Origin: Enterococcus phage vB_Efm3_KEN20
Length of the DNA: 42,434 nt
Sequence record: PP582174.1
Direction: 5' to 3' (one strand)
A program made the position numbers and the translations under genes. Under the pieces are notes generated by a model. That model was not told the origin of the DNA. It saw nothing but the letters and a program-made list of their open reading frames with translations, and searched no databases. Shown piece by piece: positions 5,236 through 35,935 of this stretch; the first letter of the stretch is position 1; every line of letters begins with the position of its first letter.

Positions 5236-8200
5236 TTATATTAATCCCATTTGTCTATTTCTAGTACGTGTTTCTGATTCTTGATACTTTGTAATTTCTT
5301 TACTTACCTTACGTCCATCAAGTTCAATTGTAGGTGACTTATCAAGTAACGCCATTAAGAGTTCATTTTGTTGTTGCATCAAATTAATCAAGATGGATAA
5401 GTCTTGATTAGAATTATTACCACTCAATGGTGTAGGTGTATCATTTTTTTTACCAAGTTTCTGATTTGCGTATGCTAATAGTTGCATAGCTCTTGAACGT
5501 TTAAGTCCTGAGCCTGTTAATGGAATTATAACCTCTTCTTTGTTGCCTTCTCCAACTCTTGCAATGTGTTCTTTTGTGACCCTTCCACCGTATTCGTAAC
5601 CAACTCCACGATAAGCATTTGTTAGTGAGCCATATCTTGACAAAGCATATCTAATTGAAGCTAAGATGTTAGATAGTGGGTCATATATATTACTGTTGAA
5701 TCCAGGCATTGCATACTGTCTGAATGTTGGGTCAATCACTTGGAGTAATCCTTTAGATGGCGTTCCATTCTTAGCATTAATATCCCAGTTGTTAATTGCA
5801 TTAGGATTACCATTTGACTCTGTACGCATTTGATTTAGTAATGCATTTAAGTTTGCAGTACTGTATTGGCCAGTCATTTTCAATGCTCTAATTGCTACAT
5901 TTCGCCATCTTTCTACTCCACTGCCTCCCACACTATCACCTGAGATTTGAGTGTTTTGTGGGTCTTTCACACCGTTTAAATGCACGTGGTCGTAGTGGTC
6001 TCCATCTGGCCATGGTCTCCAGTCATTATGAATACCTGTACCTGATTGTCCTGAACGGTCACGAACTTTACCATTAGTGATTACGTAACCAATCTTAGAG
6101 GCAAATTTATCAAACGCATAGTTTGCCGCTTCTGTGTAGCGTGGTGAGCCACCTGTAACACCAGGTAGTGCAATATCAATAGCATTACGTTTACCATGTG
6201 AATAGGGGTCACCTGGTCTATACCCACTAGTTACCATAAAGCCTGGGAATTTCTTCATTACTGATTTAGCTACATCTGCTAAATATTTATAGACACCATT
6301 TGTTCCTATAGAGGTATCTAGGTTACCAGACGAGAACAAATCAGTAATCTTTTCAGTCAGGGCACTTGTTGCTTTAGATAGAATACCTTTACCTACTTCT
6401 AATGGATACTTAGTTAATCCACCTAATACATCTAAGCCACCCAGTACTTTTCTAGCTAATGCGCCAGGGTCTGAAATGAAGTCCCACACGTCACCTACTA
6501 CATTTTTCAGTGTGTTTCCTACATTACCAGCAATATTTTTCACACTGTCCCACATGTTACCAAAGAAGTTAGTACCCTTTTTGTAACGGTATTTTGGTGC
6601 TTTTGAACCTTGAAGCTGAGCTGTTTCTTCTGCTGTCAAGACATGTGTTCCTTTTGGTGCATTTAATACCACGTTGCGCCCTTTAGGTATGAATGCTCTA
6701 CCATCTGGTGTGATAACTGTTTCTGCTCCTCGTCCATCATTAACCATCATTGGGCCATTAATTGGGTGACCACCTGCTGGTGTACCTGTCGCATATTGTG
6801 GTACGTCCCACTCTGTCAGAGGTTCAGCGCCTAATTTCTCAAGTACCCAAGAAGCTCCTTTGATAATACCATTTACTGGTTTACCAATGGCTCTTAGTGC
6901 TGCATTGAATACTTCCTTGAATGCTGCAACTACTGCGTTTTTACCACCCTTGATGGCTTCCACCATTCGTTGAGGTACTTTCGTGAAGATATCATACACA
7001 AAACCAGGTACGGCAAATAGTATACCTGTGATTGTCTCCCAAATGCCTTCAAAAATCTTTTTGTTTCTTTCGTAGAACTCGCCTAATGTGATAAGTATTT
7101 TACCTAAGAACGTGTTTTTAATACCACCCCAAATGGCTGCCCATATGCGATCACCAGTATTCTTAATTTCATCCCATGCTCTACTCCATTGTCCTGTAAT
7201 GATAAGTCCAAAGGTGTTTAGTATTCCTGCAATTGAGGCTGTTACTGTTTCGATAGTGATTTGTATGGCAATCATTATTGTTTTAACAATAATCCATAGT
7301 CCTTGGAACCTATCCTCCATTATTTTCCATGCTACAACAATAACTGTTTTAAATCCATTAGCAGAGTCACCTGTTGTTTTAAACATATCGCTCATACGTT
7401 TTAAACTGTCTGTCCATGATTGCATAAGCGGAAGAATGTCTGGCCCTACCTCTTCTGTGAAAAACTTATAAAGAGTATTAAACTCTTGATTTAGGTTATA
7501 CAAAGCTAGGTCTGCTAAGTCTAACACAACATCCTTTAAACCACTTAAAAATGTCTTAGTATTTTCTACTGCCGTTTCTAATCCAGTTATCTGATCTTGA
7601 GTCATTCCCAGTGTTCGCAACATGGAATAACCTTGCAATGAAGTGGCTTCATCGTTAGAAAATAGTTTCCAGAATCCTTGTACATACTCCCCAAATGTTT
7701 CTGCTTTTTCTTTAAAGACTTTGATGAAATCTTCTATTTTCCAAATCGTTTCATAATCAAGTCCTGCTAATCTTAGTAGATAATAGTCATTACTTTGTAC
7801 ATCACCACTCCACACTTTTTTAACAAAGTCCACCATTTGCGTGAAACCATTCTTGAAGTTGAATATGAAGGCATCCACTTCATCCATTGCATTTGCAAAA
7901 ATTTCTTTGAGTCCATCAAATACATCTCCAACCCAAACAAAGTTTTTTGCTATTTCTGGTAGCACCGCAGCAACTTTTTTCATGAAGTTTTCCATGTTTG
8001 TTCCAGCGTTTGTAATAAATTCGCTGATTGTTGGTAAGTTCATGTTTGCAAGCATTGCGTCCACACTCTTAATTAGTTCTGCTGTACCACGCACCATCGC
8101 TGTTTTAGCATTTGCTAGTGAGGTGCTGATACCTTTTGTAGAGTCTTTGGCAATCTGTTCTAATGACTTAAGACCGCCGCCGCCTTCTTTATCCATCTTA

Positions 8201-18473: not shown

Positions 18474-18992
18474 TCACACCTCCTTATATTTGAATGTGTA
18501 TCCTTTTGTTTGCTTTTGTTTACCTAAACATACATCACAAATACTCCTCCTAGATACACCTAGTTCTTCACTCGCATAACGAGCGTTGATATAGACTTTT
18601 CCTGTTTCAACACAATATACTTCCTTAGACATTTTAATTAGTGCTGTACGAGTTCTATTTCCGTGATTAATATTCTCTTTTCTAGTCACCCATTCTAAAT
18701 TTGATACTTTATTGTTAGCTTTGTTCTCGTCAATATGATTAATTTGTGGCTTATTTTCTGGGTTTGGTATGAAAGCTTGTGCGACTAAGCGATGAACTGA
18801 ATATCCCTTACTTTTACTGTTCTTACATAGAATAACATTTTCATATCCATTGGGTCTAATTGAGGTTGATTTAATTCTACCTTTCAATCTATGATTTGCG
18901 CTATCTAACCTATCTACACTTCTAACTCTACCTAAGTTGCTAATTTGATACAACCCGTCATATCCTTTTATATCTTTCCAAACTTCTTCCAT
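18474..18992 (-). CDS. HNH homing endonuclease (NUMOD4/HNH_3 type), paralog A
   Basis: MEEVWKDIKGYDGLYQISNLGRV...HRLVAQAFIPNPENKPQINHIDENKANNKVSNLEW...GYTFKYKEV. Start moved to ATG 18992 (RBS AAAGAGGAGG). Own TGTGCTATCATAAT promoter upstream. Its 3' end encodes the terS RBS. Confidence 0.8.
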   Translation of the reverse strand: MEEVWKDIKGYDGLYQISNLGRVRSVDRLDSANHRLKGRIKSTSIRPNGYENVILCKNSKSKGYSVHRLVAQAFIPNPENKPQINHIDENKANNKVSNLEWVTRKENINHGNRTRTALIKMSKEVYCVETGKVYINARYASEELGVSRRSICDVCLGKQKQTKGYTFKYKEV

Positions 18993-19048
18993 AAATAAAA
19001 CCTCCTCTTTCATACTATTATGATAGCACAAATAAAGGAGGTTGTCAA

Positions 19049-19234
19049 CTATTTTTGTTCGTCCTTCATTTCGATAATCTCATAATGACGGTTGCGACCG
19101 CCTAGCTTTGTGCGAACGTCTTTAAAGTAGCCAAATTTTTTCCCATAAAATTCATCCGCAGCGAACTGTGACTTAAACTTTCTGGATTGTCCGGTAGCTA
19201 AATCTTTAACGATGATTGGTTTTGGAGCACCCAT
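19049..19234 (-). CDS. Small protein resembling the C-terminal DNA-binding domain of the HNH paralogs (remnant?)
   Basis: 61 aa; PIIVKDLATGQSRKFKSQFAADEFYG resembles PIIATNLKTGESREFYGSNECARQL of the HNH C-terminal domains; RBS GGGAGG. Confidence 0.45.
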   Translation of the reverse strand: MGAPKPIIVKDLATGQSRKFKSQFAADEFYGKKFGYFKDVRTKLGGRNRHYEIIEMKDEQK

Positions 19235-19593
19235 GTGTTTCTACCTCCCTTACTTTAGTTTGTTGAGTTAAACAAAACTCCCTTACATACCTTATTATAT
19301 CATATAAAAAGAACCCTGTGTAAAGAAACCAGGGGTCAATCATGTTTATAGGGGGAACAATCGTATAAGCGAAATAACATACTATATATAGTATGAATCC
19401 TTGATTTTCAACACAAGAAACCAGTTTTTAATTACATTTTACGAGGGAAAAGGACGTTTTTCAAAGTTGGTTTGGGGACTTTTATGTGAAGAAGAGGGGG
19501 CAGCGATTAATTCGTTATAAAAAGGTGGGCGGGTAAAAACATTTTGGTCTCCCTAAAAATATTTTTGTCTGCGCGCTTGTTTATTTAGCGCTG
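19235..19593. other. Candidate cos / packaging-recognition region
   Basis: ~360-bp non-coding stretch between the packaging HNH and the terS cluster. Strand-biased purine/G blocks (gaagagggggcagcg 19488-19505; ggtgggcggg 19524-19533). 18-bp perfect palindrome catactatatatagtatg at 19378-19395. Confidence 0.35.
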
Positions 19594-19977
19594 TTACCTA
19601 CCTCTATTTTTCCAACTGTAGCTATGTTCTTCCTTGTTGTGACACTCGTAACAGATTGACTCTAAGTTATTTAAATCAAGTCTATGTTTCCATCCATTTG
19701 GACTTCTTAATTCAATTATATGATGCACAAGGTTTGCGTTGGTGTACTTGCCTTGTGCCAAGCATACCTCGCATAGTGGTTGCTCCATTAGCTTAGCTTT
19801 ACGTGCGTTCCTCCATTGGGTTGAATGATAGAAGGTACTGTACTTCTTGTTGTCGTCATTGTATCTTACGTGCTTATTGTATTGGCTATTGTTGTACCCT
19901 TGATGTGCGTCACAGTAGCGCTCAGGTAGCGTAACATAGTTACGACAAGAAGATACAGCACACTTGCGTTGTCTCAT
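19594..19977 (-). CDS. HNH endonuclease (packaging-associated, zinc-ribbon N-terminus)
   Basis: Classic HNH motif HHIIELRSPNGWKHRLDLNNLESICYECHNKEEH. Start set at MRQRKCAVSSC (ATG 19977, RBS GAGAGGAG). Location next to cos/terS is typical of cos phages. Confidence 0.8.
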   Translation of the reverse strand: MRQRKCAVSSCRNYVTLPERYCDAHQGYNNSQYNKHVRYNDDNKKYSTFYHSTQWRNARKAKLMEQPLCEVCLAQGKYTNANLVHHIIELRSPNGWKHRLDLNNLESICYECHNKEEHSYSWKNRGR

Positions 19978-20009
19978 TGCGTTACTCCTCTCTACTATTA
20001 TATAGAAGA

Positions 20010-20034
20010 AAAGACTACTATTATTTAGTAGTCT
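20010..20034 (-). terminator. Hairpin aagactact-attattt-agtagtctt, then a TATATAAT -10 element on the minus strand
   Basis: 9-bp perfect stem overlapping the stop of the 66-aa gene. Confidence 0.5.
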
Positions 20035-20221
20035 TCTTTGTTTTAACAACGATCTTGTCTGTTGGTTGTTCTACATTGACTGATTCAGATTCTTTACGTG
20101 TTAGATCTGACGCTTTGATGTCTTGTTCAAATGGTGTATGTTTAGCACAGTATTGTGCTGGTAGCTTAACTGTTTCATTACATCCTTGTTGGTTGCAGTA
20201 CATGTATGGCAAGTGGAACAC
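20021..20221 (-). CDS. Small zinc-ribbon protein, paralog of the N-terminal Cys motif of the packaging HNH
   Basis: CNQQGCNETVKLPAQYCAKH versus CAVSSCRNYVTLPERYCDAH in the HNH; start ambiguous (GTG at 20221, TTG at 20212, ATG at 20203). Confidence 0.5.
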   Translation of the reverse strand: MFHLPYMYCNQQGCNETVKLPAQYCAKHTPFEQDIKASDLTRKESESVNVEQPTDKIVVKTKKTTK

Positions 20222-20412: not shown

Positions 20413-20566
20413 TGTTTAAGTCCTCCAATAAACCAGTAATATAATAAGTAACTTCTTCTAAATTATCTGTTGTAAATCCTTGTTGATTATTTTCGCTTTC
20501 ATAGTATTCAACAAAATATTTGTTTTTATCAGTGTCTAAATTGATATTGATATTTATCTTTATCAT
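20378..20566 (-). CDS. Hypothetical 62-aa acidic protein
   Basis: RBS TAGGAGG upstream. Confidence 0.45.
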   Translation of the reverse strand: MIKINININLDTDKNKYFVEYYESENNQQGFTTDNLEEVTYYITGLLEDLNNEDRQTTTSTK

Positions 20567-20754
20567 TTACGATTACCTCCTAATAACCAGCTCCATACGA
20601 TAACCAGTTGTGCAATGGCAAAAGCCCAATCACCTTGCTGGAATAATTGATATGGTAACTTCATACCTAAATATATAGCAATGTACCCAAAACCAATGAT
20701 AATCAAAACACTTAATATGATTGATAAAATAGTTGTCAATATGTCTTTCATCAT
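20563..20754 (-). CDS. Small two-TM membrane protein, first gene of the leftward arm
   Basis: 63 aa hydrophobic; RBS GAAGGAGG; TGATATAAT extended -10 upstream. Confidence 0.55.
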   Translation of the reverse strand: MMKDILTTILSIILSVLIIIGFGYIAIYLGMKLPYQLFQQGDWAFAIAQLVIVWSWLLGGNRK

Positions 20755-20759
20755 ATCTC

Positions 20760-21260
20760 CTCCTTCTCTTTGTTTCTATTATATCATAGATAAGGGATAC
20801 TGTGTTGGTTAACGGAACCAGTTGGCTTTATTAATTAAATAACAAATTTAAAATGTTGCGTTTTTAATAATGACGTAAAAATGTCAGTGGTAAAATGCTT
20901 TAATATCAACTATTACAGCTATTATTCTCTAATGAATGACATACGAATGACAAACGGAAAATGGCTGTATCCTTTCTCTCCCATAGCTTTTAATATGTTA
21001 TTGACATTATGACATATTATACTTATAAAAAATAAAATATAATAATACATTATCATGTAGTAACTATATATTTCCGTTTAAAATAAAATGGGGTGTCATT
21101 TTGTCATCATATCAAACATGGTCTCTCAAATGTTGATAACTCAACGTTTCTTACATTTATAATTAATGACAAAAAAGTCATTAATTATTTAGATGAGATA
21201 ATAGTTGACAATTGTATCAATAGATGGTAACATTGGTTTATAAATTAAAAGGAGGAAACA
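20760..21260. promoter_or_regulatory. Divergent early control region with an array of TGACA/TGTCA half-sites (operators or origin iterons) and divergent promoters
   Basis: AT-rich 500 bp between the two arms. Half-site pairs at 20871-20887, 20937-20952, 21002-21015, 21095-21108, an 18-bp palindrome aatgacaaaaaagtcatt at 21165-21182, and 21204-21220. Leftward TGATATAAT promoter near 20790-20800. Confidence 0.5.
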
Positions 21261-21263
21261 AAT

Positions 21264-21551
21264 ATGACTTTCAATATAATTGAGTTCAGTAATTATGAAG
21301 TAACTAAAGGAGGCATTGTATATAATAGATACCATAAACCTATTAGGCGAAAATGGGTTGGTAATAATATATACACAAAAATATATGATAGTGACAAGAA
21401 AGCACGCACAGTAAGAGTTGATAAATTAGTCTATCAAACATATGTACAAAATCCACCTTATAACTATGAATTAGAACATATTGATGGTAATCAAGCTAAC
21501 TGTAAATTAGAAAATTTAAAATATATATCACCCAAGAATAAAGTAAAATAG
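21264..21551 (+). CDS. Small HNH_3-like protein (truncated homing-endonuclease-like)
   Basis: 95 aa; ...NYEVTKGGIVYN...ELEHIDGNQANCKLENLKYIS resembles the NUMOD4 + HNH core; RBS AGGAGGA. Confidence 0.45.
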   Translation: MTFNIIEFSNYEVTKGGIVYNRYHKPIRRKWVGNNIYTKIYDSDKKARTVRVDKLVYQTYVQNPPYNYELEHIDGNQANCKLENLKYISPKNKVK

Positions 21552-23608: not shown

Positions 23609-23986
23609 ATGACAATATTAAAACGGTACAAATGTATAAAATCAAATGATGAACAAAGATTTGCTGTGGGAGAAATATATCCATTATATAATAACGGTTA
23701 TAAAAATTACGTTGTAGCGAATAATAATGTGAATTGGTATGAAAATGAATTTCCAATTATTAAACGAGACTATGGTATTGAATTTGAGGAGGTAAAAGAA
23801 AAAATATTTGATCTAAACAAACTGATCACATTAACCAGAATTGATGAAAACACGGTATATGTAAACATTAATCACATTGCAGCTTTCTATCACAACAAAG
23901 CTTGGGAATATACTATTGTTATACTGTCAGACGGTACTCAATTAGATATAAAAGACTCAGTAGAATCAATTGCTAACTATTTTTAA
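23609..23986 (+). CDS. Hypothetical protein
   Basis: 125 aa; RBS TAGGAGGA. Confidence 0.5.
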
Positions 23987-24015
23987 TCAAAAGTATAGCA
24001 CAAATGAAAAGTTTG

Positions 24016-24024
24016 TGTTATACT
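24016..24024 (+). promoter_or_regulatory. Extended -10 element TGtTATACT ahead of HNH paralog B
   Basis: Matches the -10 TATACT of the early promoters; no clear -35. Confidence 0.35.
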
Positions 24025-24047
24025 CATTACATAAGGGGGAATTAATA

Positions 24048-24557
24048 ATGAATGAAATTTGGAAAGATGTTAAAGATTATGAAGAACTCTATCAAGTGAG
24101 TAATTTGGGAAGAGTTAAGCGAGTTAATACTAACCGTATTTTGAAGGGTAGTAAAGAACCAATAGGCTATCTAAGAGTTAGATTATCTACAAACGGTATT
24201 GTATCTACTAAGAAAATCCACCGTCTAGTAGCAGAAGCATTTATCCCAAACTCTGAAAACAAACCACAAGTAAACCATATTGATGAGGATAAGACAAATA
24301 ACATGGTTTCAAATCTTGAATGGTCTACAAGTAAAGAAAATAATAACCACGGAACACACAATATAAGATCGGCTAAAACGCGAGGTATTCCAATCATTGC
24401 AACTAATATAAAAACCGGAGAATATCAAGAGTTCTATGGAACAGCTGAATGCGCTAGACAATTAGGTTTACATCAACAAAATATCACATCAGTATTAAAA
24501 GGTAGACTGAATCAAACTGGGGACTACACGTTTAAATATAAGGAGGAATTAAAATAA
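24048..24557 (+). CDS. HNH homing endonuclease (NUMOD4/HNH_3), paralog B
   Basis: [26 protein letters not shown]...[35 protein letters not shown]...[12 protein letters not shown]. Start at ATG 24048 with AAGGGGGA RBS. The ORF-track N-terminal extension lacks an RBS. Confidence 0.8.
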
Positions 24558-26143
24558 TGAATGAACTAACAAAAATAGATTATTCAGCACCTGTTGAGGA
24601 ACTACTACCTGTTTCAAATAAAAACTTTCCAAGTGAGGAATTTGTGGACTTCAATTCAGAATTAGGAAGGATGTATTACGGAGGTAAAGACGGTACACAA
24701 GCCAAATTTGAGATTCAACAGGAATTATTTATTGATAAATTCAACCAGCTAGCCTATGTGTACGCTCACCCTAACTTAAACGCTCCATATGTATACAACG
24801 CAGACACACGTATCTGGTCTGAGGTAAATCTAGGTAGTTACAAATATTCAGATTGGTATTTTGAGAACATACTAGCACCAAAATTCACACCACAATTTAG
24901 AAATCCAGAGTTTGGGAATGAAATTCGTAAAGAAATGAAGAAAATAGCTCCTGAGTTAGCTAATCGCTCCATGACACGTGGCGAACATGCCCCATTAGGT
25001 GATAACCCTAACCCAAATATTATAGCCTTTGAAAATGGAACATATGACTTTAAAACAAATGACATTAGAGAGACCAGGTTAGAAGATTATCATACTCTTC
25101 AATTGCCATATCCGTTAATTAAAACAGATGAGACAGATGAATTACTCGCAAAACAATGGATTGACTATTTGCTGAAAGACCAAGCTCAGACATTGTATGA
25201 GTATATTGGTTACATGTATTATAGAGAGTACAAATATCAATCTATTTTATACCTATTGGGTAATGGGTCAAACGGTAAATCGTATGTAGGTGGATTTATC
25301 ATGAACAAATTAATTGGGTTCAAAAACAGTTCAGCAGTTGGTCTAGACAGCTTAGCAGATAAAAATAACCGTTTTGACAAAGCTTCATTACACCATAAAT
25401 TACTAAACTTTGAAGCAGACTCAAGCGCCAACTTTGTAAAGGGTACAGAGACACTGAAAAAGCTTTCAGGCGGTCTTGACGCTGTCCACGCTGAGAAAAA
25501 AGGTAAAGATGCGTTTAGTTTTACCAACTATGCAAAACTAATGTTCTCCATGAATGAATTACCTGCATTTAACGACCGCACAAATGGATGGTATAGACGT
25601 ATTTTGATTTTAAATTTCAATACCAATCTTGACACAGCAGAAGCACGTGAGCGCATTAATGAGTTCAACAAGCAACGTGAGGAACGTGAATCAAAAGAAC
25701 AACTAGGTAAATTCGCATGGTTCTGTATTCAGCAATTTAAAAAGATTTTAGACACAGGTGCAAATGGTGAAAACCCATTTACAGAGACAGAGGATATGAT
25801 TGAATTTAAGAAAGCTTATATTGAATCAAATGACCCATCTAAAGAGTTCTTGAGTGAAGTACCTGTCATTGTGGAAGATGAAGAAGGTACTGTTAACCTA
25901 ACACTGTTGAAGAATATTTTTAATGTGTACACTAAAGAGAACAATATCAATAAATCAATGAACTGGCGCACAATGAAGGAGCTACTGTTGAAGCAAGGTT
26001 TTGAAGAAAAGCGTACAAGTAAAGCTCGTGTACTCACTGGTCTCAAAATCGCACGTAACGGAGATAACGAATCCATTAGACCTTATCTAATGAACGCACT
26101 CGCAGGGACAGAGTATGTAAACATTTTCAATGATATACAGTAG
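24557..26143 (+). CDS. DNA primase-helicase (D5_N / P4-type C-terminal SF3 helicase domain)
   Basis: 528 aa; Walker A LLGNGSNGKSY; D5/P4-family arrangement; RBS AAGGAGGA supplied by the 3' end of the upstream HNH gene. Confidence 0.7.
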   Translation: MNELTKIDYSAPVEELLPVSNKNFPSEEFVDFNSELGRMYYGGKDGTQAKFEIQQELFIDKFNQLAYVYAHPNLNAPYVYNADTRIWSEVNLGSYKYSDWYFENILAPKFTPQFRNPEFGNEIRKEMKKIAPELANRSMTRGEHAPLGDNPNPNIIAFENGTYDFKTNDIRETRLEDYHTLQLPYPLIKTDETDELLAKQWIDYLLKDQAQTLYEYIGYMYYREYKYQSILYLLGNGSNGKSYVGGFIMNKLIGFKNSSAVGLDSLADKNNRFDKASLHHKLLNFEADSSANFVKGTETLKKLSGGLDAVHAEKKGKDAFSFTNYAKLMFSMNELPAFNDRTNGWYRRILILNFNTNLDTAEARERINEFNKQREERESKEQLGKFAWFCIQQFKKILDTGANGENPFTETEDMIEFKKAYIESNDPSKEFLSEVPVIVEDEEGTVNLTLLKNIFNVYTKENNINKSMNWRTMKELLLKQGFEEKRTSKARVLTGLKIARNGDNESIRPYLMNALAGTEYVNIFNDIQ

Positions 26144-26155
26144 GAGGTTTTATTT

Positions 26156-26653
26156 ATGAAAGAAATTTGGAAAGATATTGAAGGATATGAAGGCGTTTAT
26201 CATGTGAGTAACTTAGGACGAGTGAAGAGAGTTGCAACAAATAGAGTTTTACAACCATATAGAAACAAAGTTGGCTATTTACTAGTTTATTTATGTAAAA
26301 ACGGTAAGCGTAAAACTCATAGAATCCACCGTTTAGTAGCACAATCTTTCATACCAAACCCAGAAAATAAACCAGAAGTTAATCACCTAGATGAAAATAA
26401 GATTAATAATATGGTTTCAAATCTAGAATGGTCAACTAGAAAAGAAAACTGTAACTATGGAACGCGTAATGAAAGACTGAGTATCCCAATCATAGCAACT
26501 AATCTAAAGACTGGTGAATCTAGAGAGTTCTATGGATCAAATGAATGTGCTAGACAATTAGCATTAAATACCGCACACATTACAAGTGTTCTAAAAGGTA
26601 GATTGAAACAAACAGGTGGATACACATTCCAATATAAGGAGGAAGAGGAATGA
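26156..26653 (+). CDS. HNH homing endonuclease, paralog C
   Basis: [26 protein letters not shown]...[35 protein letters not shown]...GGYTFQYKEEEE. Confidence 0.8.
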   Translation: MKEIWKDIEGYEGVYHVSNLGRVKRVATNRVLQPYRNKVGYLLVYLCKNGKRKTHRIHRLVAQSFIPNPENKPEVNHLDENKINNMVSNLEWSTRKENCNYGTRNERLSIPIIATNLKTGESREFYGSNECARQLALNTAHITSVLKGRLKQTGGYTFQYKEEEE

Positions 26654-26874
26654 ACAAATATTATGTATACACCGTAAATAGTGATGAGCCATTTATCGTA
26701 AGGACAACAAGTGACTTACAACAAAACTATATATCTGCCATTGTAAAAACAAAAGGTCAAGGTGTATGGCGTTTTGAGTATGAGGGTGAAGAAAAACCAG
26801 GCAGAACACCAACCAAGTATGATAGTGTATTTAGAGTAGAGCACATTGTGTCTATTGTAAAAATAATTGAATAA
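26650..26874 (+). CDS. Hypothetical protein
   Basis: 74 aa; RBS AAGGAGGAAG is inside the HNH 3' end. Confidence 0.5.
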   Translation: MNKYYVYTVNSDEPFIVRTTSDLQQNYISAIVKTKGQGVWRFEYEGEEKPGRTPTKYDSVFRVEHIVSIVKIIE

Positions 26875-30260: not shown

Positions 30261-31001
30261 ATGAAACAATTAAGACTGAAGAAGAATGGTAAAGCACCAC
30301 TAGTGGCTGGAGCGTTCAATGGAGAATCAGAAGAGTTAATTCAAAAATGGATACAAGAAGGGGGTAACGTTGGAACACTAACCGGGTCAAAAAGTGGCAT
30401 TGCAGTCATTGACATTGATAATCATAATGGAGTGGATGGTCTTGGTAACTTGAAAGAGTTCTTAGATACGTATGACATCACTTTACCAAAAACGCAAGTC
30501 ATTAAAACTCCAAGTGGTGGACTACACTACTACTTTAAATTAGATGAAAAATACAATGACACGCAATTCATTCAAAACCATTCACAACTTGCAGGGGTTG
30601 ATTTCCAAGTCCACGGCAGGTACGTTGTAGCACCACCTAGCCAAATTGATGGTAACTATTATAAGGTAGTACGTGACGTAGAAATGGCAGAATTACCTGA
30701 GAAATGGTTAGAAATATTCACAGATAAAAGTATTACTAAAAAGAATAAACCTCGCGAGAAGAAATGGACTGGTCAATTAATGGAAAGTATACTTACTGGC
30801 GCAGGAGCAGGGTCAAGGAATATATTTTTAGCCTCAACAATTGGCAAGCTATTCGCAACAGGAATGGATCATGACGCGGTTAGGGTATGGAGTTTATACG
30901 TAAACCAGATTTCATTAAATCCACCACTACCAGAAGAGGAGGTATTACGAACATATGACTCAGTTAGAAAACGTGAATTACGAAGAATGGCGGACAATTA
31001 A
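30261..31001 (+). CDS. Prim-Pol type DNA primase (bifunctional primase/polymerase N-terminal domain)
   Basis: [10 protein letters not shown]...GGLHYYF...GRYVVAPPS pattern typical of the Prim-Pol catalytic domain; RBS GAGGAGGAAG. Confidence 0.6.
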
Positions 31002-31488
31002 AGGATATGAAGGTATTTATGAAATAAGTAGTTTTGGTAGAGTTAGAAGTTTGAATTACAATAACCAAAAAGGAAATATAAAAGTTAGACCAAGTGTTCC
31101 TCATAAACATGGGTATAGACAAATTAAACTAGGTAATAAAAGCAAATTAATACACCGCTTAGTAGCAGAAGCATTTATCCCAAACCATGAAAATAAACCT
31201 TGTGTTAATCATCTGGACGAGGATAAGACAAATAATAGAGTTGATAACTTAGAATGGGTAACAAAGAAAGAAAATAACAATTATGGTACTAAGAATATTA
31301 GAAGCGCATACAAGAATAAATACATTTCTGGAAACTTCAAATCCGTTATATGCTCAAATGGAGTAGAGTATTTTAGTGTGTCAGAAGCTTGTCGTCAATT
31401 AGATTTAGACCCAAGTACTGTCGTAAAAATTCTAAAAGGTACACGTAAAAGTACAGGAGGCTACACATTTAAATATAAGGAGGAGTAA
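30955..31488 (+). CDS. HNH homing endonuclease, paralog D (overlaps the 3' end of the Prim-Pol gene)
   Basis: ...[24 protein letters not shown]...[35 protein letters not shown]...[10 protein letters not shown]. Confidence 0.75.
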
Positions 31489-31828: not shown

Positions 31829-32140
31829 ATGTTTAATGAATCTGAAGAACTACAGAATACACTTGATAAAATAATACAGGGTTCACGTATTACAGGCAGT
31901 GTATTTGAACCTGAAGAATTAAAAAATACAAAACGCTACAAAACCAGCTCAGGTAAACAACTCTTTGACGTGCTAGAAGATGATTTACTAACTTATGAAG
32001 AATTACGTGGTTTCTACAAAGCGAACATTTACAAATATACACACAGATATAAACAAAAAAACGGCATTGAAGATTTGAAAAAAGTAAAGGTCTATGTAGA
32101 TCAACTAATAAAACTGGAGGAAAAACAAGATGAGATTTGA
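31829..32140 (+). CDS. Hypothetical protein (possibly DUF3310-like)
   Basis: 103 aa; the segment LFDVLEDDLLTYEELRGFYKANIYKYTHRYKQKNGIEDLKKVKVYVDQL resembles small conserved phage proteins; unverified. Confidence 0.4.
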   Translation: MFNESEELQNTLDKIIQGSRITGSVFEPEELKNTKRYKTSSGKQLFDVLEDDLLTYEELRGFYKANIYKYTHRYKQKNGIEDLKKVKVYVDQLIKLEEKQDEI

Positions 32141-32600
32141 ACCATTAAACGAACCCTATGATATGTATGCAATAACAGATGAAGGTCACGTGTTTCATTT
32201 AGACAAAGAACGATATGAACAAGAAATAGTTGATCCAAAAAATGGAAAGATGTATGTAGTACTTAACGGATCACACAAAAAGTCACGTAAATTCTACGTC
32301 TCTCAATTAGTAGCAGATATGTTTGTTAGAAATGAGCATAACTTAGGATATTTATATTTCAAAGATGGTAACGTACAAAATAGTCATTACACAAATATTG
32401 GTTACGCTATTAATCCAAAAGAAGGGGTAGAACGTGTGGCACGTCCTTTCAGAAATAAAGTAGAGCCAAAACGCCATGCCTTGATTGTTGCTATTGGAGA
32501 AGCGTGTGAGAAAAAGGATTGGAAAGAAGCTAATAAACTAGGAAAAGAACTTTGGCAATTGGAGGGCGCATCGTATGAAAACAGAAACCATGAGTTTTGA
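32130..32600 (+). CDS. Degenerate HNH_3-like protein (catalytic His replaced)
   Basis: VSQLVADMFV...LYFKDGNVQNSHYTNIGY parallels HRLVAEAFI...[15 protein letters not shown] of the HNH paralogs but lacks the first His; RBS GGAGGA. Confidence 0.4.
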   Translation: MRFEPLNEPYDMYAITDEGHVFHLDKERYEQEIVDPKNGKMYVVLNGSHKKSRKFYVSQLVADMFVRNEHNLGYLYFKDGNVQNSHYTNIGYAINPKEGVERVARPFRNKVEPKRHALIVAIGEACEKKDWKEANKLGKELWQLEGASYENRNHEF

Positions 32601-35334: not shown

Positions 35335-35363
35335 AATAAAGTAAAAAGAGTTGACCTTATGTG

Positions 35364-35393
35364 TTGACTCTTTTCTTTTATCATGCTATTATA
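35364..35393 (+). promoter_or_regulatory. Promoter TTGACT-N18-TGcTATTAT with the shared 5'UTR motif attatataaatataga
   Basis: Tandem GTTGAC motifs (35350-35369); same -10/UTR block as at 26911-26926. Confidence 0.45.
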
Positions 35394-35422
35394 TAAATAT
35401 AGAAATAAGGAGGATGAATAAA

Positions 35423-35935
35423 ATGAAAGAAATTTGGAAAGACATTGAAGGGTATGAAGGATTATACCAAGTAAGTAACTTGGGGAGAGTGAAAAGAGTT
35501 ACAACAGGTAGGATTTTGAAAGGTGGTAAAGATAGAGGTGGCTATCTAATAGTTAGCTTATATAAAAACAATATTGAATCTAAAAAGTTAATTCATCGTC
35601 TAGTAGCTCAAGCTTTTATACCAAACACTGAGAATAAACCACAAGTTAATCATATAGACGAAGATAAAACAAATAATATGGTTTCAAATCTAAATTGGAT
35701 GACAGCTAAAGAAAACTCAAATCATGGAACACATAATGAAAGAATGAGTAAAACGAAAAGTATTCCAATCATTGTAACTGATATTAAAACTGGTGAATCT
35801 ACAGAGTTCAATAGTGGTAAAGAATGTGCTAGACAATTAGGTCTGCATAAGCAAGGTATTAGCGCAGTTCTAAAAGGTAAACTCAGACAAACTGGAGGCT
35901 ACACATTCAAATACTTAAATGAAGGAGTAGACTAA
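35423..35935 (+). CDS. HNH homing endonuclease, paralog E
   Basis: [26 protein letters not shown]...[35 protein letters not shown]...GGYTFKYLNEGVD; start at ATG 35423 (AAGGAGG). Confidence 0.8.
   Translation: MKEIWKDIEGYEGLYQVSNLGRVKRVTTGRILKGGKDRGGYLIVSLYKNNIESKKLIHRLVAQAFIPNTENKPQVNHIDEDKTNNMVSNLNWMTAKENSNHGTHNERMSKTKSIPIIVTDIKTGESTEFNSGKECARQLGLHKQGISAVLKGKLRQTGGYTFKYLNEGVD

Follow-up and report, generated by a model that had tools for sequence, protein, structure and literature searches.

The closest described systems to the one considered here are the replication origins of the SaPI elements. SaPI Rep proteins are self-loading SF3 helicases whose C-terminal winged-helix domain reads iterons of five or six nucleotides, 6-12 to an origin; the middle of such an origin is AT-rich and is flanked to the left and to the right by two or more iterons, set in opposite orientation (PMC9371898). 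Neither the binding nor the melting of these origins by the Reps requires ATP, and every Rep shows specificity for its own origin (PMC9371898). An origin of this general kind has already been proposed in silico (2026) for a phage, the Efquatrovirus Abitsa, which encodes a PriRep5-like self-loading helicase and in which seven iterons of 10 bp surround an AT-rich region close to a terminus of the genome; that paper contains no comparative analysis of co-variation (PMC13517437). For the group of Enterococcus faecium phages discussed below, no published origin was found in the literature searched.

The DNA analyzed, which we call the window, is 42,434 bp in length and is 99.9% identical, over the region compared, to E. 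faecium phage vB_Efm3_KEN18. Phages of the KEN18 type are lytic siphophages of about 42 kb whose two arms are transcribed in opposite directions, and the non-coding gap between the arms (Table 1) holds an array of short TGACA-type sites. The preliminary description of this region left two readings side by side, an operator array or a replication origin; of these, the comparison with related phages favors the origin, and the operator array is the weaker reading. On sequence grounds, we think it probable that the array is the replication origin of the phage, that this origin is of the SaPI/PICI type, and that it is bound by the phage's own SF3 helicase. The idea of such an origin is shared with the Abitsa proposal; what is new here is a series of apparent specificity pairs between helicase and iteron.

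The likeness to SaPI and PICI origins (SaPI1, SaPIbov1, and SaPI5) begins with the proposed initiator, a D5-like SF3 helicase, which in the SaPIs has a DNA-binding domain at its C-terminus and in the window is predicted to have one. The window has ten short sites, which falls inside the range of 6-12 iterons; the pairs TGACAttaTGACA and TGTCAtttTGTCA flank an AT-rich core in opposite orientation; no separate loader gene is present; and the repeated word appears to track the variant of the helicase. The differences concern placement and domain content. In SaPIs the origin lies directly downstream of rep, whereas the array of the window lies 3.3 kb upstream of the helicase, between the divergent arms and two promoters of a lytic 42-kb phage. 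Unlike SaPI5 PriRep5, the helicase has no fused primase, and the gene for a prim-pol follows 4 kb later. The position of the array affects strict membership in the SaPI type, not the mechanism.

The genome plan of Abitsa, in which there are two arms, the cos ends are 3′ and HK97-like, and the putative origin is close to a terminus, is also that of the window (PMC13517437). Abitsa belongs to another genus and infects E. faecalis; its helicase, at about 31% identity, and its word, of the AGAACA type, also differ from those of the window, both being judged from the related phages IME-EF4 and PMBT2. In the satellite phage P4, the alpha protein is a primase-helicase of the P4 family (D5_N type) whose C-terminal winged-helix domain reads short repeated iterons; alpha has its own primase domain and requires a second site, crr, in addition to ori, whereas the window contains no second cluster of the array word. 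The iteron origins of lambda and of the plasmids pPS10, F, and R6K likewise place the sites of the initiator beside an AT-rich unwinding element, and in the plasmid origins inverted repeats near a promoter serve autoregulation. Lambda O and the plasmid Rep proteins recruit the DnaB helicase of the host; in the window, by contrast, the proposed site-specific binder is the replicative helicase itself.

Architecture of the gap between the arms

The leftward arm, after its first gene, runs through small open reading frames, an HNH gene, cos, the terminase, and the structural genes. The cos site was placed through the record-end junction of dArtagnan and IME-EFm1, which maps to window positions 19200-19805; in IME-EFm1, a 9-nt 3′ overhang has been demonstrated experimentally (PMC4445525). 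With cos at this position, the gap is approximately 1.5 kb from the genome end. Two open reading frames annotated in the gap of KEN18 (window equivalents 20881-21012 and 21093-21230) are taken as spurious, since they lack a Shine-Dalgarno sequence and the records of Aramis, SSBHU, GEC_S_9, and DELF1 annotate nothing there. An Rfam scan of 20500-21500, judged by E value, gave a single sub-threshold chance match and no known RNA family, and a scan of the region for terminators found none.

Table 1. Coordinates (window numbering) of the gap, its sites, and the genes discussed in the text
Feature	Position	Strand	Remarks
cos site GGGGCAGCG	19497-19505	.	9-nt cohesive end; placed by homology with dArtagnan and IME-EFm1
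First leftward gene	20563-20754	-	Left border of gap
Non-coding gap between arms	20755-21263		509 bp
PL, putative leftward promoter, extended -10 TGATATAAT	20778-20786	-	Sequence reading
Outer-left inverted site pair TGACg-N-TGTCA	20871-20886	.	TGAC-N8-GTCA
Direct pair AATGACAtacgAATGACA	20937-20952	+	11-bp pitch
Inner-left iteron pair TGACAttaTGACA	21002-21014	+	8-bp pitch; faces AT-rich core
AT-rich core, presumed DNA-unwinding element	21015-21093	.	79 bp, 17% GC
Weak dyad TACATTATCATGTA	21046-21059		Inside AT-rich core
Inner-right iteron pair TGTCAtttTGTCA (ATGACAAAATGACA on - strand)	21094-21106	-	Faces AT-rich core
Perfect 30-bp palindrome ATAATTAATGAC-aaaaaa-GTCATTAATTAT	21159-21188	.	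Two inverted sites; 12+6+12, arms 100% complementary
PR, rightward promoter, TTGACA-N17-TAACAT	21205-21233	+	TG at -15/-14; 10/12 matches
First rightward gene (HNH gene)	ATG 21264	+	Heads early/replication arm
D5-like SF3 helicase, 528 aa, proposed initiator	24557-26143	+	Annotated "DNA primase"
Separate prim-pol primase	30261-31001	+	PHROG 695 DNA polymerase/primase

The word TGACA/TGTCA occurs nine times in the 501 bp from 20760 to 21260, where 1.24 occurrences would be expected from the 105 copies in the whole 42,434 bp (Poisson P = 6e-6), and in 20,000 first-order Markov simulations of the region a count of nine was never attained. Among the 512 reverse-complement classes of 5-mers, this one ranks first for enrichment there (P = 3.4e-6, or about 2e-3 after correction). 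Genome-wide, the densest 500-bp window is the gap region, with 10 copies as against 5 in the runner-up. Longer versions of the word are enriched as well (TGACAwww, 6 observed versus 0.29 expected; dTGACAww, 7 versus 0.5), and the site consensus is roughly (A/T)ATGACA(A/T)(A/T), approximately AATGACAww with a wGACr core, which is longer than the half-site proposed at first. Ten wGACr sites lie between 20755 and 21263, one of them being the -35 sequence of PR, and the AGTCA arm of the palindrome is additional to these. In an unbiased scan of the genome for the most densely repeated word, the gap merely ties with two windows of coding sequence because the sites of the array are rather degenerate in the window; the arrays of relatives are less so, with up to nine copies of TGACAAAA.

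All six of the TGACA elements listed in the preliminary description are in the sequence, with small corrections of position. The outermost inverted site has a spacer of eight rather than nine nucleotides and ends one base earlier than had been given (20886, not 20887); the mirrored TGTCATttTGTCAT pair occupies 21094-21107, one base to the left; and TTGACAattgtaTCAA begins at 21205 rather than 21204 and extends to 21220. The direct tandem, TGACA-N6-TGACA, stands as described, and the 18-bp palindrome turned out to be the core of the longer, perfect one listed in Table 1. The string TTGACA (21001)-N17-TATAAA (21024-21029) is likewise present. Its status as a promoter is not supported: promoter-like matches in the region number 11, compared with 11.1 +/- 3.7 in shuffled sequences, and the string is without a counterpart of workable spacing in relatives of the SSBHU/dArtagnan type, so that we keep it only as a string.

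The array is arranged symmetrically around the duplex that should open most readily. Calculated over 60, 80, and 100 bp, the least stable duplex of the entire 42.4-kb window starts at 21014, 20991, and 20989, respectively, and the shortest of these segments (21014-21074, 11% GC) is bracketed by the inner pairs. The two putative promoters, both of the sigma-70 type, lie at the outer limits of the gap: PL is just upstream of the ribosome-binding site and ATG (20754) of the first leftward gene, and PR is followed by the ribosome-binding site AGGAGG and the ATG of the first rightward gene.

For comparison, we used twelve GenBank genomes and about ten to twelve IMG/VR contigs that share the PL block. 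The Nonaheksakonda locus (L034) was left out, its sequence ending short of the gap. At the same place, these relatives have a gap of 450-625 bp in which PL and PR are conserved throughout. Of 13 aligned relatives, 12 keep the block CTATTATATCATAGATAAGGGATA at PL, among them those that use a different word, and the TTGACA of PR is invariant in all lineages, again including those in which the word has changed. From this invariance, we take the TGACA at 21205 to be a -35 box and not an iteron; conversely, since the PR -35 and PL -10 sequences stay constant while the word changes, the sites of the array are not promoter boxes.

Between the promoters, the gaps fall into subtypes that can barely be aligned with one another and that nevertheless keep a common plan: an inverted pair on the outside, direct pairs, two pairs that face inward, and additional sites ahead of PR. 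The preliminary description had proposed looking for the layout of half-sites in related phages, and the plan of the array is indeed conserved across them. The outer-left inverted pair is retained in nearly all relatives of the wGACr type, with spacings from N5 to N8, and the direct pair is also found in Aramis, EFm5, and the contigs L024 and L030. An equivalent of the inner-left pair occurs at the same place in every subtype, written in the subtype's own word, and the mirrored counterpart on the right is kept as well; the inward pairs of relatives are separated by 70-90 bp, and the AT-rich core between them bears a dyad. The sequence of this dyad differs between subtypes, and its dyad form persists. 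At the position of the large palindrome, relatives also have sites, in varying orientation.

Most of these arrays use wGACr, and gaps of the SSBHU/dArtagnan type contain TGACAAAA nine times. In IME-EFm1, LG62, and contig L028, the equivalent places are occupied by G(G/T)ACACAAAA or GTACACAAAA. When five words were counted in thirteen gaps, the resulting word-by-locus matrix was nearly diagonal.

IME-EF4 and PMBT2, whose helicases are 97-100% identical, had been expected to provide a clean point of co-variation. Instead, the gap of IME-EF4 has an extra dominant word, GTGTAGACA (eight copies), that is missing in PMBT2 while the helicase is unchanged; such gaps can thus hold sites for a second binder.

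The preliminary description also pointed to GC skew as a check on the origin. The cumulative skew does reach its minimum at 20-21 kb; since this turn coincides with the switch in gene strand, it is not independent evidence for an origin.

The helicase and the word that accompanies it

The gene of the proposed initiator starts 3.3 kb downstream of the array and is directly followed by an HNH gene. Pfam assigns D5_N and DUF5906 (E = 3e-20 for DUF5906) to its product, which together make up an SF3 helicase core, and a primase domain is absent; the label "DNA primase" is a mis-annotation. The best sequence match in the PDB, found with phmmer, is the SaPI5 primase-helicase PriRep5 (7OLA/7OM0; E = 2e-10), at low identity and in an alignment limited to residues 152-369. 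The AF2 model of the protein, which was built from an alignment of 15 sequences and is of moderate confidence (mean pLDDT 75), is matched by Foldseek to ASFV PrimPol, SaPI5 PriRep5 (7OLA/7OM0), MPXV E5, and vaccinia D5, with E values down to 1e-15. The Walker A motif, G237-x2-GKS242, is invariant. Toward the C-terminus, the model contains helices at residues 427-434, 448-461, and 470-479 and strands at 438-447, 483-486, and 491-498 (pLDDT about 83-85), so that residues ~427-498 are predicted to form a helix-strand-helix-helix-hairpin with a winged-helix-like topology. Homologues of the separate prim-pol in related loci have the Pfam domains Prim-Pol and PriCT_1, and we infer that at the origin this protein probably works together with the helicase.

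To follow the word through the group, we compared the 78 open reading frames of the window with the proteomes of four complete relatives (dArtagnan, DELF1, IME-EFm1, and LG62). In IME-EFm1 and LG62, most proteins are 85-99% identical to those of the window, the helicase is 29% identical, and the word is of the GTACAC type. In DELF1, most proteins are 50-85% identical, the helicase is 96% identical, and the wGACr word is kept; the helicase of dArtagnan, which is also of the wGACr type, is 97% identical to that of the window. Only the helicase, among the 78 open reading frames, is common to both wGACr phages and replaced in both GTACAC phages.

More distant loci extend the series. Two metagenomic helicases that are 82% and 79% identical to that of the window (L039 and L040) are accompanied by wGACA arrays and have the same predicted wing residues. 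A helicase 74% identical (L038) occurs with an array of CTACA/TGTAG in twelve copies, and one 58% identical (L035) with a GTAACA array, AAAGTAACA, also in twelve copies. In the Efquatrovirus type (IME-EF4 and PMBT2), the helicase is 31% identical and the common word is AGAACA(C). Thus five words, wGACA, CTACA, GTAACA, GTACAC, and AGAACA, track five types of helicase, and within a helicase type the word remains constant despite a diverged genomic background. Differences among the helicases are greatest at the N-terminus and over the last 130 residues. The segment predicted to form the wing reads EKRTSKARVLTGLKIA in the wGACA types and EKARVSAGMVYKGIKIA in the CTACA type, and it is different again in the GTAACA type.

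The distance between helicase and gap varies considerably. The two adjoin one another in IME-EFm1, LG62, and L038, and they are separated by 1.6 kb in L040, 3.1 kb in L039, 3.3 kb in the window, and 8.8 kb in L035. Because of this variation, linkage alone does not explain the pairing of word and helicase; linkage within a swapped module could contribute to the co-variation in IME-EFm1, LG62, and L038. The pattern argues that the iteron word is specific to the cognate helicase, with the number of independent word changes behind it being small, about four or five.

A similar relationship may extend beyond this group of phages. In 40 IMG/VR loci that encode related helicases, we looked for the most densely repeated hexamer. 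In PICI-like contigs of about 13 kb, an array of 9-12 copies, against a background median of 3, lies 200-600 bp after the helicase match, and its word differs from locus to locus. In loci of the KEN18 type, TGACAA, located in the gap approximately 3 kb upstream of the helicase, is the most densely repeated word anywhere in the locus. One of the PICI-like contigs, L058, shares the plan of the window in detail: palindromes lie on the outside, and pairs with a 9-bp pitch face each other across an AT-rich core. Another locus, L077, has TTGTGAAA in ten copies 3.2 kb upstream of a distant helicase; its context is unclear, and it was not used.

A probable origin and its alternatives

The observed enrichment of the sites, their symmetry around the least stable duplex, the conservation of the layout, the co-variation of word and helicase, and the family to which the helicase belongs suggest how an origin at this position would work. 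The winged-helix-like domain at the C-terminus of the helicase would bind iterons with a wGACr core, and two pairs of these stand opposed across the AT-rich core. Helicase bound at both sides would melt the core, two hexamers would then load themselves without a separate loader, the separate prim-pol would prime synthesis, and replication would proceed bidirectionally. Further binding capacity would come from the outer sites, among them the two inverted or palindromic ones near PL and PR; through the outer sites, the initiator may also influence early transcription.

An array that lies between two divergent promoters might instead consist of operators for a phage-encoded regulator that times PL and PR, either apart from replication or in addition to it. 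Two of the sites are palindromic, as would suit a dimeric regulator, and the larger of these ends 17 bp before the -35 sequence of PR; the second repeated word in the gap of IME-EF4, moreover, is not explained by the helicase. The geometry nevertheless speaks against this reading. No site of the array overlaps the -35 or -10 sequence of either promoter, the sole overlap being the invariant PR -35 itself; the nearest site is about 85 bp upstream of the PL -10, and the densest and most conserved pairs are in the middle of the gap around the core, approximately 200 bp from either promoter. A candidate regulator is also missing from the searches made: Pfam finds no HTH or other regulator domain in 17 small early open reading frames, and for 5 of these PHROGs gives none either, although a very small protein or one with a novel fold could have escaped such searches. 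The preliminary description, too, had recognized no repressor gene. That description looked to the small early proteins or to a host factor for the binder. In the proteome comparison, no small protein follows the change of word, and the SF3 helicase does; a host factor does not fit, since the word differs between close relatives whose host species is the same. We consider an operator array unlikely, although the outer sites may have regulation as a second function. Slightly less likely again, in our view, is that the sites are iterons of an origin or of a partition-like complex bound by some other protein of the helicase module. Two candidates can be named. A 74-aa open reading frame just downstream (26650-26874) adjoins the helicase in all types and is 32-33% identical in IME-EFm1 and LG62, and an extra small gene lies between gap and helicase in IME-EFm1 (IME_064) and in L038 (9574-9927). 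The 74-aa open reading frame is, however, also 33% identical in DELF1, which has the wGACr word and a 96% identical helicase, so that it fails to follow the word. A counterpart of IME_064 is absent from the window, and for helicases of this family binding to their own iterons is documented (PMC9371898).

There is very little likelihood, in our judgment, that the array is simply a set of sigma-70-type -35 boxes belonging to overlapping promoters, or a chance cluster. TGACA does make up five-sixths of the -35 consensus, and plausible promoter strings begin at 21001 (N17-TATAAA) and 21205 (N17-TAACAT). Promoter-like matches, however, do not rise above what shuffling produces, and the words found in relatives (GTACAC, CTACA, GTAACA, and AGAACA) are unlike a -35 sequence, while the -35 of PR stays TTGACA. 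The clustering exceeds chance, which is excluded by the enrichment statistics together with the conservation of the array.

Possible exchange of helicase and origin

The helicase and the origin may perhaps travel together. We tentatively raise the possibility that they form an exchangeable cassette, with at least five or six words in a single lineage of Enterococcus siphophages and with a PICI-like architecture that includes a shared non-iteron box, AAGGGATACAGC. Were this so, the diversification of the cassette could reflect competition between phage and satellite for the initiator at co-infection, and a recognition code for self-loading SF3 helicases could be read from the naturally occurring combinations of wing residues and iteron word. 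The palindromic outer sites beside PL and PR could, in the same event, couple early transcription to the occupancy of the origin.

The five natural pairs of helicase and iteron, with the changes in the wing that accompany them, offer an experimental handle on how SF3 helicases read DNA, and they bear on cross-talk or incompatibility among phages and satellites that infect the same cell. Fragments of such an origin might serve as plasmid-borne anti-phage decoys or in building phage-dependent replicons. For lytic E. faecium phages that are in development for therapy, the analysis names a probable origin and a probable initiator. In the GenBank records of this group, the gap is unannotated or is assigned doubtful small open reading frames, and the initiator is labeled "DNA primase."

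Dyad symmetry and additional repeats in the proposed origin gaps

The AT-rich core between the inward-facing iteron pairs contains a dyad, and by sequence comparison its sequence differs among subtypes of relatives while the dyad itself is kept at the equivalent spot (see table). A BLAST match between the origin core of EF36P1 (L014) and window 21032-21111 runs in the orientation opposite to that of the flanking EF36P1 genes, which fits dyad symmetry of the core and not a true inversion.

We also found a box, approximately CTTACTCTCCCAAGGGATACAGC, that is not an iteron and that recurs across the gaps irrespective of their iteron word, with the variants TATCAAGGGTTACAGC and the complement of TATCAAGGGTTACAGC. 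In the window the box is degenerate; the origin of a PICI-like contig (L058) holds it too, as CCACAAGGGATACAGCA. This element could be a priming site, or a site recognised by some shared factor of the host or the phage.

Two Efquatroviruses, IME-EF4 and PMBT2, encode helicases that are 97-100% identical and have the word AGAACA(C) in common in their gaps. Despite this, AAAAAGTGTAGACA, present eight times as the second dominant repeat of the IME-EF4 gap (L032 957-1581), is absent from the PMBT2 gap (L033 602-1104). This difference suggests that some such gaps may hold sites for a second binder.

Coordinates of features in the window and comparison loci
Feature	Locus	Position	Sequence
Non-iteron box	Window	20962-20987, 20903-20919	
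Non-iteron box	L003-L013, L038-L040, L032 (IME-EF4)		
Non-iteron box	L058 (PICI-like)	6290-6310	
Core dyad	Window	21046-21059	TACATTATCATGTA
Core dyad	SSBHU		TTACTACACTATAATGTAGTAA
Core dyad	dArtagnan		ATATGCGTATTAGCATAT
Core dyad	EFm1		TGGTATATACCA
Core dyad	L039 (wGACA type)		TGTATATGTATATATACATA
Small ORFs of KEN18	Window	20881-21012, 21093-21230 (+)	
SF3 helicase	Window	24557-26143	
Prim-pol	Window	30261-31001	
Probable cos site	Window	19497-19505	...GTGAAGAAGAG / GGGGCAGCG / ATTAATTCGTTATAAAAAGG
HNH/homing-endonuclease genes (examples)	Window	18474-19031, 19594-20049, 21264-21551, 23970-24557, 26156-26653, 30955-31488, 32130-32600, 35351-35935	

Annotation of the helicase and of the gap

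GenBank records throughout this phage group label the helicase gene "DNA primase"; its product has D5_N and SF3 helicase (DUF5906) domains only, and the true primase is a separate prim-pol. In the KEN18 record, "hypothetical proteins" of 43 and 45 aa are annotated within the gap. Neither of these two small ORFs has a Shine-Dalgarno sequence, and the same stretch is without any annotated ORF in Aramis, SSBHU, GEC_S_9 and DELF1; both are probably spurious calls overlying the proposed origin.

The 42-kb viral contig L077 codes for a distantly related helicase, 39% identical across residues 53-289. Upstream of this gene, at a distance of about 3.2 kb, non-coding DNA at 6600-6900 contains about ten copies of TTGTGAAA, adjoined by a G-rich tract. 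This region may be another type of origin.

The probable cos site and homing-endonuclease genes

Where the ends of the dArtagnan and IME-EFm1 records join, the sequence matches a stretch of the window that is, on this basis, the probable cos site. For IME-EFm1, a 9-nt 3′ overhang, there GGGTCAGCG, has been demonstrated by experiment (PMC4445525).

The window is rich in HNH or homing-endonuclease genes, with at least eight, an unusually large number. Several occur in only a subset of relatives, among them the first rightward gene, which adjoins the origin, and the genes on either side of the helicase.
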